A stretch of DNA of 17,202 bases from NCBI GenBank assembly GCA_039190745.1, contig JBCCXZ010000071.1, positions 1-17,202 of the forward strand, given 5' to 3'. Below the pieces are notes generated by a model. The model searched no databases. It had not been told where the DNA came from and saw nothing but the letters and a program-made list of their open reading frames with translations. Position 1 is the stretch's first letter; the number at the start of each line of letters is the position of its first letter. The DNA comes from Planctomycetota bacterium (GTDB lineage Bacteria > Planctomycetota > Planctomycetia > Pirellulales > Lacipirellulaceae). This document shows positions 5,074 through 17,202 of the stretch, one piece after another. Made by a program: the position numbers and the translations under genes.

Positions 5074-5262
5074 TTCACCACGGAGGCACGGAGGCTCGGA
5101 GAAGTTGACAAGATAACAGGATTGACTGGATCGACAGGATGGGCGGCGGCAAAGAGGCGATTTGCTTGAGAGCATTTCTCCTGATCCTGTCCATCCTGCC
5201 GATCCTGTTATCCTGTCGCTTCTTGTTTGTTTCTTTTGTGTCCTCCGTGTCTCCGTGGTGAA
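5074..5262. repeat. Nested double inverted repeat: outer arms of CACGGAGG-type units, inner arms of ACAGGAT-type units
   Basis: Outer: 5074-5094 TTCACCACGGAGGCACGGAGG vs 5242-5262 CCTCCGTGTCTCCGTGGTGAA (20/21 complementary). Inner: 5107-5140 vs 5184-5217 (29/34 complementary) with a 43-nt spacer. Confidence 0.92.
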
Positions 5263-9513: not shown

Positions 9514-10932
9514 CTACTCCACTCGACTGGCCTTCTGTCGGACGCCGTTCTGGAAGAGCTCCAGGGCGGTGCAGTTGCCTTCTTCGTCCAGCTGAAAAGT
9601 GATCGTCGCCTCGACCACCTTGTAGTGCCACTCGGTCTCGCTGCGGGGGTAGACGCGGTAAAAGTCCTGGCCGGTTAGCTTCACCATCAGCTTGCCGTCT
9701 TCGAGTTTCACGTCGAAGCCGATGCCGGGGAGCAGGCGGTAGTAGCCGGCGTAACGCTCGATGATCTCGGGGGCGACTTCGATCGGCGCCTCGAACTCAC
9801 GCGGCTGGACGTCTTGCCCGGAGAGCAGACGGAAGATGTCTTTGGCGAGCGGGTCGGTACCGCCGCTACCTGTATTGGTGAGCAGGATGACCGCGATCTT
9901 GCGCTGACGGCCGACGAGCAGCATCGAGCGGTAGCCGCCCGTGCCGCCGTTGTGCCATCGGGTGCTGCCGTCTTGGGCGACGTGCCAGCCAAGGCAGACC
10001 GAGAGGTCGACTCCCTCAATGGGCTCTTGATGCACCTGCCACGCAAGGTTGATCGCCTCACCGAGCCGGCCCTCTGGCGGGTCGAGCTGCGCTTCGGCGA
10101 AGCGCAGCATGTCGCGTGCGGTGCTGCGGAGGGCGCCGGCGCCGGCTAATGCGGGGAGATGCCAGTTGGCCGCGGGCGTGTCGGGGTCGGTGTACGGCTT
10201 GGCGAGGCGCGACCGTTGGCCGTCGCTGAGCGTGATCGACGAGTCGTTCATCCCCAGCGGTTCGAGCACCGTTTTCTTGAGGAGCGCTTCGTAGCTCTGC
10301 CCCGATTGTTGGGCCAGCAGGTGACCCAGCAGGCCGACGGCGAGGTTGGAGTACTCGTACTTCTTGCCGGGCGCCCGCGCGGGCTGGTGGTCGTTGACAA
10401 ACCGGTAAAGGTCTTCGGTCGTGTAGTGCGCATACGGGTCCGACGGGTCGACCTCACCTTCGCCGATATTGCTCGGCAGCCGGGGCAGCCCCGAGACGTG
10501 CGTGGAGAGATCTTGCAGTGTGATGGCGGGCGCCTCCTTGTTCCAGGGCACCCAGTACCGCTTGCGTTGGAGCCGGACCCCGTCGGGGAGCAGCTCGGTC
10601 GCCGGTTGGTCGAGCCTCGCGTCGCCGCGCACCACCGCGTCGGCCAGCAGAAGCCCGGTGAAGACCTTGGTGATCGAGCCGATCTCGTAAACGGTGTTGC
10701 CGTCCGGCTCCGGGCTGCCGGGCTCACCGGTACGGCCGAAGCCGTATGTGCTGTGCTCGCTGTCCTGGAGGACGCCGATCGAGACGCCGACAAGGGTTCT
10801 GCTGTCGATGTAGGGCTGGACTAGCCGATCAACTCGATCACGCAAGTCGTCGGCGCGGCAAGGAAAGCAGAGCAGGGCGGTCGAGCCGAGCAGAGCGAGT
10901 GTGCTCGCCGGCAGTGAGGGTTTGAGCGACAT
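9514..10932 (-). CDS. Secreted serine hydrolase of the beta-lactamase (class C-like) family with a probable C-terminal DUF3471-type domain
   Basis: Signal-peptide-like N-terminus; YEIGSITK (SxxK), YEYSN, WHNGGTGG; C-terminal ERYAGYYRL segment. Confidence 0.88.
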   Translation of the reverse strand: MSLKPSLPASTLALLGSTALLCFPCRADDLRDRVDRLVQPYIDSRTLVGVSIGVLQDSEHSTYGFGRTGEPGSPEPDGNTVYEIGSITKVFTGLLLADAVVRGDARLDQPATELLPDGVRLQRKRYWVPWNKEAPAITLQDLSTHVSGLPRLPSNIGEGEVDPSDPYAHYTTEDLYRFVNDHQPARAPGKKYEYSNLAVGLLGHLLAQQSGQSYEALLKKTVLEPLGMNDSSITLSDGQRSRLAKPYTDPDTPAANWHLPALAGAGALRSTARDMLRFAEAQLDPPEGRLGEAINLAWQVHQEPIEGVDLSVCLGWHVAQDGSTRWHNGGTGGYRSMLLVGRQRKIAVILLTNTGSGGTDPLAKDIFRLLSGQDVQPREFEAPIEVAPEIIERYAGYYRLLPGIGFDVKLEDGKLMVKLTGQDFYRVYPRSETEWHYKVVEATITFQLDEEGNCTALELFQNGVRQKASRVE

Positions 10933-11118: not shown

Positions 11119-12708
11119 CTACTCCGCTTGCTTGCTGACCATCGTGTCGAGCATCGTGCCGATGAGGGCGGTGGTCTCGGCGCCGCCCGCCGTGCCGCCG
11201 GCGTTCTGGCCGGTGACCATCACCCGGGGGGTGATCGAGATATTGCTCTCGCCCACGATCTTCAGCACCTCCACGAGCGCGGCATTGCCCTTGCCGATCT
11301 GCTCGGCGATGAGCTGGTAGGCGTTGGCCTGGGCCTCGGCCTTGATCTTCACCGCCTCGGCGTCGGCGCCGGCTTGGATGATGATCTTCTCTTTGCTCTG
11401 CTCGGCGATCTTCACCTCGTAGTTGGCCGTGGCGAGGCGTTTTTCCTCTTCGGCCTCTTGCTCCGTTTTGCTGAGCTCCTTGCGCTGCTCGGCGGCGCGT
11501 TGCTGCTCCTTAAAGGTCTCCTGCTCCTGCAGGGCGATTTCGCGGTCGGTCTGGGTCTTGAGCAACTCGCCCAGGGACTCTTTATCGCCGACGTCGCCGA
11601 TGCGGACGGCTTTGATCGTGACGCCGATCTTGCTCATCTCGGCCTGCAGCATTTCCTCGGAATCCGTCTCCTGCTGTGAGCGCTGCTGCACGTAGTTGAG
11701 CGCTTTCACGCCTTCGGCATTGTTGCGGAAGATGGCCCGCACGGCGGAGTTCATCACGCTGCGGAGGCCTTCCTGGTCGTCGCCGACGCTGGCCACCAGC
11801 AGCGGCGCGTCCTTGGGTTTGATCTCGTACTCGACCCGCACGTCAACGGGGAACGTGAAACCGTCGGAAGTACGGACAACGATCTCGGTTTCCTCTTCCT
11901 TGCCGCCGGTCTTCACGCCCTCGCGTGTGGTGTAGAGGACGATCTTGGTCCGGGTTGAGATCGGCGTGACCTCGTAGGCCTTTGAGTGGCTGTACTCGTA
12001 GTACTGGCCGGGGAGGAGCGGGTCGCTCCAGATCCCTAGTTCGCCGGGGTCGACGAGTTTGCGCGTCTCTAGCTCGAGTTCTTCACCGTCCTTGGGAGGG
12101 CTGCCGACGTTGGATTTGACGACGCCGACCTGTGCCTTCTCGATGGTGAGCAACGGCGCGGGGTCGAGCTTGAACAACTTGGTGTTGAAGCGGTACTTGC
12201 CCGGCTTGAGGACCGAGGTCTGCGGTCCCTTGTAGCCGCCCCCGGCGGTGAGGAAGTGCTCGGCGGCGAGCATCTGGCGATCGCTGCCGGCTTCCCACGG
12301 GGGGGCGTAGGTTGTGCCCGGCGGGAGTGGCTGGCCGTCGGCGGCGGTGAGCATGCCGATGCTGCCCTGTTCGATCTCGATCACCTTGGTGAACTCGATC
12401 TTGTAGATGAAGGGCCAATACCAAGGGTGCCAACCCGGCGGCAGGATCCGGGCCTGCGGGCCCTTCTCACCTTCTGTTGCAATGATCTGACCGGACGCCA
12501 ACGACTTCAGACCGATGCTCTTGGAGACAAGCCCGATCTCGTCCTCTGCGATAAAGCGGAACGAACTGAGCGTGAAGAACACGCCGAAGACCATTAGGGC
12601 GGCGACGCCAGCGGCGATACGCATCTGGGAAGACCGGACCTGAGCCGAGCCGGCAATGATCATGCCAGCTCCGATCACGCCCAGCAACAGAAACATCATT
12701 GACGACAT
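11119..12708 (-). CDS. SPFH/band-7 (flotillin-like) membrane protein
   Basis: Two N-terminal hydrophobic helices, an SPFH-like core (IVVRTSDGFTFPVDVRVEY...AVRAIFRN) and an E/Q/A-rich coiled coil. The start is probably ATG 12708; the track's GTG at 12864 overlaps the divergent promoter. Confidence 0.85.
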   Translation of the reverse strand: MSSMMFLLLGVIGAGMIIAGSAQVRSSQMRIAAGVAALMVFGVFFTLSSFRFIAEDEIGLVSKSIGLKSLASGQIIATEGEKGPQARILPPGWHPWYWPFIYKIEFTKVIEIEQGSIGMLTAADGQPLPPGTTYAPPWEAGSDRQMLAAEHFLTAGGGYKGPQTSVLKPGKYRFNTKLFKLDPAPLLTIEKAQVGVVKSNVGSPPKDGEELELETRKLVDPGELGIWSDPLLPGQYYEYSHSKAYEVTPISTRTKIVLYTTREGVKTGGKEEETEIVVRTSDGFTFPVDVRVEYEIKPKDAPLLVASVGDDQEGLRSVMNSAVRAIFRNNAEGVKALNYVQQRSQQETDSEEMLQAEMSKIGVTIKAVRIGDVGDKESLGELLKTQTDREIALQEQETFKEQQRAAEQRKELSKTEQEAEEEKRLATANYEVKIAEQSKEKIIIQAGADAEAVKIKAEAQANAYQLIAEQIGKGNAALVEVLKIVGESNISITPRVMVTGQNAGGTAGGAETTALIGTMLDTMVSKQAE

Positions 12709-12857
12709 CACCCACCCCCGTTGATTGCTTGCTCGCGGGGCTCTTGGGGCTCCGCTTGTAGGAAAACCGTACCTCACAGGTGCTTCGCTGGAGTGCGGAG
12801 AATCTTGGCGATCCCGGGGGGCGTTGGCGGTGTCTGCAAGGGCAGGCGGGCGTTGCG

Positions 12858-12886
12858 TTGACACCCGCCGAGAGCCGGATTAGGCT
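12858..12886 (+). promoter_or_regulatory. Sigma70-type promoter of the cimA leader transcript
   Basis: TTGACA (12858-12863), a 17-nt spacer, then TAGGCT (12881-12886), 43 nt before the leader ATG. Confidence 0.78.
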
Positions 12887-12929
12887 CCCATTTCACGCAC
12901 GCGAACCCGTACAACCGCTTCCGCCCGCA

Positions 12930-13028
12930 ATGCCCGCAGCGTTCCGAATCGCCGAGACCGTCGTTACTGTGCCCTCGATTGGCATCGGGGGCATTGTGAT
13001 TTCGATTACCCGGGAGGCCGGCTCGTAG
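12930..13028 (+). CDS. Attenuator leader peptide MPAAFRIAETVVTVPSIGIGGIVISITREAGS (32 aa)
   Basis: 6 Ile, 4 Val, 3 Thr and 0 Leu codons. The ORF lies between a promoter and an intrinsic terminator upstream of a branched-chain amino acid biosynthesis gene. Confidence 0.82.
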   Translation: MPAAFRIAETVVTVPSIGIGGIVISITREAGS

Positions 13029-13054
13029 GGGGCGTGCGACAGACAGCACACACC

Positions 13055-13089
13055 AACCCCGGGGCCGGCAGCGGCTCCGGGGTTTTTTT
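13055..13089 (+). terminator. Attenuator terminator hairpin
   Basis: AACCCCGGGGCCG-gcag-CGGCTCCGGGGTT followed by TTTTT. Its left arm can pair alternatively with 13017-13032. Confidence 0.9.
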
Positions 13090-13137
13090 GTAGGCAGACG
13101 GAAGGCCTCGCCCATCCCAGCACAGAGTCCATTTCCT

Positions 13138-13171
13138 ATCCTGTCGATCCAGCCGATCCTGTTATCCTGTC
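13138..13171. repeat. Solo copy of the ATCCTGT-type repeat arm
   Basis: ATCCTGTCGATCCAGCCGATCCTGTTATCCTGTC is 32/34 identical to 5184-5217 and 31/34 identical to the reverse complement of 5107-5140. Confidence 0.92.
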
Positions 13172-13201
13172 CGATTCCTAATCCACTCCACCGCGACCGC
13201 C

Positions 13202-14761: not shown

Positions 14762-14762
14762 T

Positions 14763-14852
14763 CTCTCGCAAAGGCGCTAAGGCGCAACGCAAGAGTCATC
14801 GAACCGCAAACTACTTGTATCAAATCTTTGCGCCTTCGCGCCTTTGCGAGAG
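14763..14852. repeat. Inverted repeat with CGCAAAGG-type tandem units between cimA and valS
   Basis: 14763-14787 CTCTCGCAAAGGCGCTAAGGCGCAA vs 14828-14852 TTGCGCCTTCGCGCCTTTGCGAGAG (24/25 complementary), with a 40-nt AT-richer spacer and no U-tract. Confidence 0.92.
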
Positions 14853-14865
14853 GCTTAGAAATAAC

Positions 14866-17202
14866 ATGGCGACAGACATTCAATCGCTCCCGTCCCAGTA
14901 CGACCACGCCGCGGCGCAGGGGAAGTGGTACGCGTTCTGGGAAGAGCGGGGCTACTTCCACGCGGACGCGGCGAGTGAGAAGCCGCCGTTCTCGGTGGTG
15001 ATCCCGCCGCCGAACGTCACCGGCGCCCTGCACCTGGGGCACGCGCTCAACAACACGCTGCAAGACATCCTCTGCCGCATGCGGCGGATGCAGGGCTACG
15101 AGGTGCTCTGGATGCCGGGCACCGACCACGCAGGCATCGCCACGCAGGCGGTCGTCGAGCGGCGCCTTTTGGAAGAAGAGGGCAAGAGCCGGCACGACTT
15201 AGGTTCTACAACGGCTGAGGCACGCGAGAACCTCGTCGACCGCATCTGGGACTGGAAGCGGGAGTACGAGAAGCGGATCCTGGGGCAGCTCAAGCAGATG
15301 GGCTTCAGCTGCGACTGGGAGCGGCTGCGGTTCACGCTCGACGACCAGTGTGCTCAGGCCGTGCGGGAGACGTTCTTCCGGCTGTTTTCCGACGGCAAAA
15401 TCTACCGCGGCAAGCGGCTGGTGAACTGGGACACGTTCCTGCAGACCGCAGTGAGCGACGACGAGGTGTTCCACGAGCCCGTGAAGGGCCACTTCTGGCA
15501 CTTCCGCTACCCGGTGATTGATCCGAAGCCGGGCGAGCCGGAGTTCGTCACGATCGCCACCACGCGGCCGGAGACGATGCTCGGCGATACCGCGGTGGCC
15601 GTGCACCCCGACCCGGCGAGGCAGCTCGACAAGGTCGAGGCGGAGCTAAAAGAAAAGCTCGCCGCGGCGCCGGACAAAGAGAAGGACGCGGTGCAGGCGG
15701 GGATTGATGCGCTCGCCGAACGGCGGAAGACCAAGCTTGCGGAGTTGAAGCAGCTTTGCGACATGGCCGCCGACGGGCGCATGCTGCGTCTGCCGCTGGC
15801 CGATCGCGAGATCCCGCTGATCGCCGACGTGTGGGCCAAGCCGGAGTTAGGTTCGGGCTGCGTGAAGATCACGCCGGCTCACGACGCGAACGACTACGAA
15901 GTGTGGCAACGCAACCTGGAGATTGGCGCCGTCAACATCATGGAGCGCGACGGCACGCTCAACGACGCCGTGCCGGAGAAGTACCGCGGCCTCACAATGA
16001 AGAAGGTCCGCACGGCGGTGGTCGACGACTTGACCGAGCTAGGCCTGCACGACCCCGAGACCGACCGCGAAGACCGAGAGATCGACCTCGCGCACTCCGA
16101 CCGCTCAAAGACGCCCATCGAGCCGTACCTGGCGGACCAGTGGTTCGTGAAGATGGACGAGGTGTCTGATGGTCCGGGCTCTGGCGAACCCGGACTTGCT
16201 CAAACGGCGATGGACGCCGTCACCGACGGGCGGGTGAAGATCGTCCCCGACCGGTACGCGAAGAGCTACCTCGACTGGCTCGGCGAGAAGCGCGACTGGC
16301 CGGTGGGCCGCCAGTTGTGGTGGGGGCACCGGATCCCGGTTTGGAGTATTGATGCAGAAGAAGCAAGAAAGCGTATTTCGGAGTTGCAAGCCGCGGGCTT
16401 CACGGAGATCGACGATGCAGCATTCGCCCTTGCCGACGATGGTCTTGAGGATGAGGTTGCGGACCAAGAACACAAGGATGAGGAAGGAAAGGTCTACGCT
16501 TACACCGATTTCGGACACCCAATCTACACTTGCGTTGGGTGGAACCAGCCCGAATTCGAGAAGCGTTTAGCCGTTCTTGGGTTCGAACAATCTGAAGAAG
16601 TCCTCGACACATGGTTCTCCAGCGCCCTCTGGCCGCACTCGACGATGGGGTGGCCGGACGGGACTGCCGAACTCGATAAGTTCTACCCGACGAGCACGCT
16701 CATCACGTCCCGCGACATCATCACGCTGTGGGTCGCGCGGATGGTGTTGATGGGCGAGTTCAATATGAACAACATCCCCTTCGACGAGGTTTACATCCAC
16801 CCAAAAATCCTCGACGGGTACGGCGAGACGATGTCGAAGTCAAAGGGCAACGGGGTGGACCCGCTCGACATCATCGACAAGTACGGGGCCGACTCGCTGC
16901 GGTTCGGGCTGGCGTACCTTACCACCGAGACGCAGGACGTGCGGATGCCGGTGGAGTTCGAGTGCCCGCACTGCAGCTGCCGCATCAAGCAAACCAAGAA
17001 GAACCGCGTGCTGCCGCGCGTGGAGTGCGACTCCTGCGGCAAGCCGTTCGGCACGCAGTGGTCCGCCTCCCACGGCACGGAGGAGGACAAACAGCTGCTC
17101 CGCGGCGCCGCGGTGAGCGAGCGGTTCGAGCTGGCCCGCAACTTCTGCAACAAGCTGTGGAACGCTTCGCGGTTCGCGCTGCTGAACCTCGAAGGCTACG
17201 AG
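14866..17202 (+). CDS. valS: Valine--tRNA ligase; continues past the right edge
   Basis: Manually translated, open throughout: IPPPNVTGALHLGH (HIGH motif, 15031-15042), PGTDHAGIATQ, ATTRPETMLGD, GCVKITPAHD, RQLWWGHRIP, VLDTWFSSALWP, TMSKSKGN (KMSKS motif, 16828-16842) and RNFCNKLWNASRF. Confidence 0.97.
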   Translation, partial: MATDIQSLPSQYDHAAAQGKWYAFWEERGYFHADAASEKPPFSVVIPPPNVTGALHLGHALNNTLQDILCRMRRMQGYEVLWMPGTDHAGIATQAVVERRLLEEEGKSRHDLGSTTAEARENLVDRIWDWKREYEKRILGQLKQMGFSCDWERLRFTLDDQCAQAVRETFFRLFSDGKIYRGKRLVNWDTFLQTAVSDDEVFHEPVKGHFWHFRYPVIDPKPGEPEFVTIATTRPETMLGDTAVAVHPDPARQLDKVEAELKEKLAAAPDKEKDAVQAGIDALAERRKTKLAELKQLCDMAADGRMLRLPLADREIPLIADVWAKPELGSGCVKITPAHDANDYEVWQRNLEIGAVNIMERDGTLNDAVPEKYRGLTMKKVRTAVVDDLTELGLHDPETDREDREIDLAHSDRSKTPIEPYLADQWFVKMDEVSDGPGSGEPGLAQTAMDAVTDGRVKIVPDRYAKSYLDWLGEKRDWPVGRQLWWGHRIPVWSIDAEEARKRISELQAAGFTEIDDAAFALADDGLEDEVADQEHKDEEGKVYAYTDFGHPIYTCVGWNQPEFEKRLAVLGFEQSEEVLDTWFSSALWPHSTMGWPDGTAELDKFYPTSTLITSRDIITLWVARMVLMGEFNMNNIPFDEVYIHPKILDGYGETMSKSKGNGVDPLDIIDKYGADSLRFGLAYLTTETQDVRMPVEFECPHCSCRIKQTKKNRVLPRVECDSCGKPFGTQWSASHGTEEDKQLLRGAAVSERFELARNFCNKLWNASRFALLNLEGYE

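Follow-up and report, generated by a model that had tools for sequence, protein, structure and literature searches.

The cimA-valS locus and its leader

The window, that is, the whole stretch of 17,202 nucleotides analysed here, carries the citramalate synthase gene cimA and, after a gap of 104 nt, the valine-tRNA ligase gene valS, which to judge from the sequence are presumably co-transcribed. A promoter-like site, a short upstream open reading frame (uORF) rich in Ile and Val codons, and a predicted intrinsic terminator precede cimA (Table 1). The next gene upstream, of the SPFH/Band-7 type, is divergent, so the terminator is not the end of an upstream operon. On the reverse strand of the window, positions 9514-10932 encode a serine hydrolase with an AmpH/class C beta-lactamase-like fold, which falls under every curated cut-off.

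Table 1. Coordinates of genes and predicted leader features in the window.
Feature	Position	Strand	Remarks
SPFH/Band-7 gene, divergent, upstream	11119..12708	-	
-35 box TTGACA, sigma70-type (predicted)	12858..12863	+	from sequence; promoter-like site recurs before leaders
-10 box TAGGCT (predicted)	12881..12886	+	identical in the same-genus locus L002
Leader uORF, 32 codons, ATG 12930 to TAG 13028	12930..13028	+	6 Ile, 4 Val, 0 Leu
Control codons Val 11, 12, 14, 23 and Ile 17, 19, 22, 24, 26	12960..13007	+	
Hairpin over control codons	12969..12994	+	-17.0 kcal/mol; also in L002, not family-wide
Small TTCG-loop hairpin	12996..13009	+	-0.2 kcal/mol (negligible)
Antiterminator (predicted)	13017..13069	+	5' strand 13017-13032 holds the uORF stop codon; 3' strand 13057-13069 is the terminator 5' arm
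Intrinsic terminator (predicted)	13055..13089	+	13-bp stem 13055-13084, T7 13083-13089; 54 nt past the uORF stop
cimA, citramalate synthase, 519 aa	13202..14761	+	TIGR00977 674 bits, cut-off 450
valS, valine-tRNA ligase	14866..17202	+	extends beyond the window end; TIGR00422 680 bits, cut-off 612

The gene downstream of the leader, which the first-pass annotation had taken for citramalate synthase, is CimA by the equivalog cut-off of TIGR00977; its product stays below the cut-off of the LeuA profile TIGR00973 (255 bits, cut-off 599), and its relatives at 78-81% identity come from Lacipirellula, Bythopirellula and Pirellulales. CimA is the enzyme with which the threonine-independent route to isoleucine begins. 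Both ilvA profiles (TIGR01124 and TIGR01127) scored below cut-off in the genome of the window, which is 95% complete, and among 41 genomes of the family a single one yielded the C-terminal domain of ilvA (PF00585); because ilvA was not found, the CimA route is probably the main isoleucine route here. The earlier argument that a leader free of Leu codons points to an isoleucine role rather than to LeuA is borne out by the TIGR00977 match, by the failure to find ilvA and by the presence in this genome of a separate leuA that has its own Leu-rich leader.

The intergenic regions on either side of cimA hold repeated elements, each with 20 blast matches in the genome including itself: a short palindromic repeat between the terminator and cimA (13133-13179), one match of which is positions 5107-5217 of the window, and, between cimA and valS (14762-14851), a hairpin of -50 kcal/mol without a U-tract, which could stabilise or process the transcript.

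The TTGACA-N17-TAGGCT promoter proposed in the first-pass annotation is present at 12858-12886, its boxes 17 nt apart, and would start transcription near 12893. A strict promoter scanner made no call at this site, the -10 box of which has 3 of 6 matches; with a looser pattern, 53 of 60 cimA loci have a site ahead of the leader, where shuffled sequences would give 2.0. Between the terminator and cimA, no promoter-like site was found in the window or across 63 loci.

The 32-codon reading frame reported earlier, with its VVTV (codons 11-14) and its Ile run, was likewise recovered. Ile occupies codons 7, 17, 19, 22, 24 and 26, as four ATT and two ATC codons, compared with 7 ATT and 81 ATC in four long genes of the window and 0 and 20 in cimA alone. 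The frame stays open upstream as far as GTG 12780, and the start was called at ATG 12930 because this codon lies behind the promoter and is conserved in the same-genus locus L002, where a stretch of 16 codons about the Ile run hardly differs from that of the window. The uORF has no Shine-Dalgarno-like site; such sites precede 8 of 60 leaders and 12 of 60 cimA genes.

Conservation of the leader and its competing helices

An Ile-rich uORF (at least 3 Ile in the last 18 codons) precedes a terminator at 63 of 104 cimA loci, as would be expected if relatives keep the uORF that the first-pass annotation described, and at 51 of 104 there are at least 4 Ile; these counts are descriptions and not tests, related genomes not being independent. 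The sample comprised 110 loci (the best 30 of 59 matches and 80 from a second search), from which one without a 5' end, three with less than 300 nt upstream and two duplicates were excluded; the 104 scored include the window. A terminator was found at 90 of the 104, and a terminator with a uORF of 10-65 codons ending 25-85 nt before it at 83. For background, a similar caller requiring T5 was run over the genome of the window, where it found 866 terminators, 409 of them with a uORF; at least 3 Ile were present in 6 and at least 4 in 3 of these 409. The window is the sole pair among the 409 to have 5 Ile in the last 18 codons, and its leader is therefore not attributed to chance. A second sample gave Ile-rich leaders at 32 of 60 further loci of the class, hand-picked for genus spread from 119 matches, and at 7 of 38 loci from other classes (54 matches, of which 40 were taken and two of these proved too short).

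The Ile threshold is missed by 41 of the 104 loci, and in one family (f102) none of 12 loci has the Ile leader, though 11 of the 12 keep the cimA-valS linkage; the element is therefore dispensable, and in this family appears to have been lost or replaced. In another family (f103) the Ile leader is present at 4 of 11 loci, and five more have 2 Ile together with 3-6 Val. The leader peptides vary in sequence and in length (12-60 aa) across loci and keep their composition: the Ile peak lies 6-10 codons before the stop (63 leaders), and the control codons (n = 1118) are 24.5% Ile, on which the leaders were selected, 14.2% Val, 4.3% Thr and 2.1% Leu. ATT makes up 191 of 274 Ile codons in leaders versus 512 of 2584 in cimA genes.

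At four loci (L013, L016, L008 and L002) the putative attenuator lies 270-550 nt before cimA, with DNA inserted between, and at L335 a gene of 114 aa stands between the two. The Ile leader with its switch at L184 (G096:C46:33121-33203) stands not before cimA but before a gene resembling a group II intron reverse transcriptase (TIGR04416, 278 bits, below cut-off); an intron insertion behind this attenuator is possible, because that genome carries its cimA on a different contig, near the contig end.

The antiterminator of the window pairs exactly as the first-pass annotation described it (-27.9 kcal/mol, with one G-U pair), and the GC-rich terminator with a U-tract that it reported is also found (-27.5 kcal/mol). 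The 10-bp hairpin that it placed over the control codons is present, with 11 pairs when 12969/12994 is counted and a z of -3.2, and might act as a pause hairpin; as a family feature it did not hold up, z being below -2 in only 9 of 62 loci. The TTCG-loop hairpin pairs as it was drawn and is energetically trivial. Across 63 loci, the antiterminator duplex between the uORF-stop region and the terminator 5' arm has -16.0 kcal/mol versus -9.4 in shuffled sequences, with p at most 0.05 in 43 of the 63; on its own, the duplex of the window is within the shuffle range (p 0.11). The alignment used for covariation contains 36 of the 63 loci, picked for similar spacing: the terminator has 88.9% paired cells and 15 both-side changes versus 4.0 in shuffles, and the antiterminator 80.5% and 11 versus 4.9. 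Both helices thus appear from the alignment to covary, which the first-pass annotation had offered as a check, the antiterminator signal being modest: the number of its pairs with both-side changes (3) equals the shuffled mean, and a control slid by +1 has a covariation score of 0.134 versus 0.135 for the actual register, because the register shifts at the stop codon.

Folding with and without a ribosome, also proposed as a check in the first-pass annotation, was carried out with RNA masked to the A site plus 12 nt: in the window the antiterminator is kept with the ribosome at every codon from 11 to 26, is weaker at 27 and is gone from 28, so that it collapses two codons after the last Ile (codon 26). 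Across loci, the terminator arm is paired upstream (above 0.5) with the ribosome at the middle Ile in 63 of 63, and is sequestered with the ribosome at the last Ile in 60 of 63, at the stop in 3 of 63, and without any ribosome in 60 of 63. A conserved 1:2 protector helix was not found (-13.0 kcal/mol for both actual and shuffled 1:2 duplexes, 62 loci); the window itself has a 1:2 fold of -26.5, but with a probability near 0 in nascent RNA. Consequently, only part of the earlier proposal that stalling at Ile or Val codons frees the antiterminator can be retained: in these folds the antiterminator is kept when the ribosome stalls and broken by a ribosome at the stop, and stalling is not predicted to free it from a protector. 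With two states and no conserved protector, an untranslated leader is therefore predicted to read through. In ribosome-free equilibrium folds of the window, the antiterminator has a probability of 0.71 at length 13070 and of 0.07 at 13076, the full-length RNA favouring the terminator once this is complete; read-through would therefore require kinetic trapping or a favourable folding order.

A probable Ile/Val attenuator and its alternatives

Conservation, chance controls, covariation and ribosome-mask geometry support the interpretation that the element is a ribosome-mediated transcription attenuator, with a leader peptide for Ile and likely Val, before cimA and valS; on sequence and structural modelling this is held with high confidence. 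Clustered pathway codons, a terminator, a mutually exclusive antiterminator, a suitable stall geometry in silico and a match of codons to gene were all found. Comparison of loci indicates that the leader attenuator is conserved, and it is very likely functional. When charged tRNA-Ile and tRNA-Val are plentiful, the ribosome would reach codons 28-33 and cover 13017-13032, the terminator would form, and a transcript of about 195 nt would be released near 13089. Stalling at Val codons 11-23 or Ile codons 17-26 would leave 13017-13032 free to pair with 13057-13069, the terminator would be blocked, and RNA polymerase would read into cimA and valS. Ile sensing would presumably serve cimA, and Val sensing the downstream valS; the scheme supposes that the uORF is translated and that the response depends on tRNA in vivo.

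The first-pass annotation had counted Val among the control codons, and Val sensing is indeed likely, but is better explained by the valS gene after cimA, which that annotation did not mention. valS lies within 1.5 kb at 84 of the 100 cimA loci that have at least 600 nt of downstream DNA. The association was examined in 99 leaders with at least 2 Ile and with Ile plus Val of at least 4; a locus was dropped if it had no valS and less than 1 kb of downstream DNA. When valS was sought in the flanking DNA, at least 2 Val codons were found in 69 of 81 linked leaders versus 3 of 18 unlinked. Genome-wide placement of valS linked five more loci (three Val-rich, two Val-free), where the gene follows on the same strand at a distance of 1.4-3.7 kb; the proportions then became 72 of 86 versus 0 of 13. 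At least 1 Val is present in 83 of 86 linked versus 3 of 13 unlinked leaders, and the mean number of Val codons is 3.0 in the former and 0.23 in the latter; for 10 of the 13 unlinked loci valS was placed elsewhere in the genome, and three were judged on about 1.5 kb downstream. On a FastTree phylogeny of CimA these loci give only four independent contrasts, of which about 3.6 agree in direction and none runs counter (sign test p 0.125). The pattern is suggestive of leader Val codons tracking valS linkage, and it is fairly probable that Val is a true second signal. At three loci (L336, L337 and L338) one to four small same-strand genes, of about 200-300 aa, lie between cimA and valS.

A leader that senses isoleucine only, its Val codons being incidental (a product of structure or of GTN/ATN interchange) and valS a neighbour with its own promoter, is possible but rather doubtful. 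The design does exist without Val, in the 13 valS-unlinked leaders with 0-1 Val; the phylogenetic contrasts number four, at p 0.125; only 1 of the 4 Val codons of the window leader is in its last 18 codons; and the -50 kcal/mol repeat hairpin separates cimA from valS, with up to three genes between them in some genomes. What this alternative leaves unexplained is the partition of leaders with at least 2 Val between linked and unlinked loci, with no independent pair opposed to it, and the finding that all three apparent exceptions rich in Val are followed by valS on the same strand, 1.7-3.7 kb away; two Val-free leaders became linked by the same procedure.

An alternative in which the uORF and terminator do not read specific charged tRNAs, but follow how fast ribosomes move or initiate in general, or work by a non-classical route, is improbable. 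Folding predicts one and the same structure wherever before codon 27 the ribosome stalls, the leader has neither a Shine-Dalgarno-like site nor a protector helix, and there is a precedent in ilvB of S. coelicolor, which according to the available part of PMC1262725 has a similar-looking leader that did not respond to codon mutations; but runs of Ile, Leu or Phe/Trp/Tyr codons that fit cimA, leuA and aroF occur in the same RNA switch (see below), and would be needless in a general sensor. The probability is very low that a small hydrophobic peptide with a function of its own is made from the uORF, with the terminator merely ending its transcript and another promoter serving cimA. The stretch is hydrophobic and rich in Ile, Val and Gly, and its near identity in L002 would suit a functional peptide, but sequence and length vary freely across loci, ATT enrichment is not required by a peptide, the conserved antiterminator overlaps the uORF stop, and the region from the terminator to cimA has no promoter-like site. 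The idea that the leader is a T-box riboswitch or binds some other ligand, its uORF being incidental, can be dismissed almost entirely: T-boxes often control aminoacyl-tRNA synthetase and ilv genes (PMC1262725, available part), but there was no Rfam match at gathering level in the window (best E 0.083, on the terminator hairpin) or in 8 related loci, the T-box motif pattern is absent from 12851-13201, and conservation is restricted to the two competing helices. An Ile/Val attenuator would share its signal, uncharged tRNA, and its target classes with the T-box riboswitches of ileS, valS and ilv genes, whereas sensing here would be by a translated uORF.

Related leaders and a shared predicted switch before leuA and DAHP synthase genes

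Leader-peptide attenuators of enterobacteria include ilvL (of ilvGMEDA), ivbL (of ilvBN), thrL and leuL. The cimA leader resembles these in having a short uORF with runs of pathway codons, an antiterminator overlapping the terminator, a position before the first committed enzyme and multivalent sensing; it differs in its putative control of the citramalate route and likely of valS, in lacking a conserved 1:2 protector and a Shine-Dalgarno-like site, and in the location of its stop codon within the antiterminator strand. The super-attenuation helix 1:2 of the four-segment E. coli trp type is not found in cimA leaders, and none of the Rfam amino-acid leader families scored above its gathering threshold in the window or in 8 related loci. 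In E. coli, pheM is the leader of the pheST attenuator. Like the pheST attenuator and the predicted trpS and leuS attenuators of Streptomyces, both named in the available part of PMC1262725, the cimA leader would place an aminoacyl-tRNA synthetase gene under leader-peptide control; here, however, the synthetase gene valS follows a gene for making another amino acid, and one leader presumably holds both types of codon for the two.

Actinobacterial ilvB leaders, including the ilvB-II uORF of Corynebacterium, share with the cimA leader a GC-rich genome, an Ile/Val-rich uORF and an overlapping antiterminator and terminator (available parts of PMC1262725, PMC11109978 and PMC11857589). As described there, they carry Ile, Leu and Val codons before ilvB, whereas the cimA leader is depleted in Leu and no such leader was seen in the 700 nt upstream of ilvB in its own genome; the C. 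glutamicum leader has in addition a third, anti-antiterminator hairpin, unlike that of cimA. A GGCC word occurs in all three strands of the cimA switch, as in the triple of actinobacterial trp attenuators; since the triple is known from those attenuators (PMC1262725, available part), the module shared among the genes discussed below could be convergent. The literature covered, main texts with few subscription journals among them, yielded no leader-peptide attenuator of cimA, of valS or in Planctomycetota: what is available of PMC4833913 treats Planctomycetes leader genes for spacing only and mentions neither cimA nor isoleucine, and the main text of PMC2965389 and that of PMC11109978, where available, do not mention Planctomycetes. 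The mechanism itself is a textbook one, and these leaders may already be listed in earlier work.

The leuA of the same genome (at G000:C12, position 22023) is preceded at about 21765-21905 by a Leu-rich leader of 24 codons that uses the rare codons CTA and TTA. In the best 30 of 55 leuA loci, the leader before the terminator has 5 or more Leu and never more than 2 Ile (30 of 30), CTA accounting for 78 of 230 Leu codons; these loci give the same antiterminator signal, and a single consensus fits the aligned switches of cimA and leuA. An RNA covariance model was built from 36 cimA and 22 leuA switches, and includes just the last four codons of the leader. It has three strong matches in the genome of the window, before leuA, before cimA and, at E 5.5e-6, at a third site (G000:C6:44481-44572), which precedes a DAHP synthase gene (NF006421, over cut-off) and has a leader with seven Phe/Trp/Tyr codons. 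The model has matches in 36 of 40 other genomes of the order. Of 88 matches, the 69 examined comprise 23 before cimA, 24 before leuA, 14 before aroF and 8 before none of these, and the richest codon class of the leader fits the gene in 18 of 23, 24 of 24 and 13 of 14 cases, respectively; a few of the cimA matches overlap the training set, and the aroF matches are independent of it.

These results raise the possibility, judged about evenly balanced, that one portable two-state module of Planctomycetia, with the stop codon inside the antiterminator, gates cimA with Ile, leuA with Leu and DAHP synthase with Phe/Trp/Tyr, and that the sensor codons co-evolve with operon content, Val being kept only while valS is downstream. 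If so, valS would be a synthetase under leader-peptide control, and coupling of transcription and translation would be at work in a phylum with condensed nucleoids. Segregation of transcription from translation has been claimed for Gemmata. The planctomycete nucleoid is described as highly condensed (available part of PMC3440768), and leader-peptide attenuation needs a ribosome close behind RNA polymerase (available part of PMC7858274); because of this need, the attenuator could serve as a reporter of coupling in planctomycetes.

The leaders provide a testable regulatory map of amino-acid synthesis in a poorly studied phylum; their codons give an independent means of telling cimA from leuA, two paralogs often mistaken for each other; and the Val-valS association is a natural experiment in which sensor codons would follow the genes that they control. 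Most worthy of attention are the module common to three pathways and the tracking of valS by Val codons.

Elsewhere in the genome of the window, no Ile/Val leader with a terminator was found in the 700 nt upstream of ileS or of ilvB. Other candidates were set aside: an Ile-rich uORF with a terminator on contig C13, which is antisense within a long gene; Ile-rich candidates on C101 and C117, where no long same-strand target was seen; and a Phe-rich candidate on C3 with no fitting gene downstream. In another genome of the sample (G084), two identical matches to the covariance model (L196 and L197) lie far apart without a leader peptide, and are likely copies of a repeated element that ends in a terminator.
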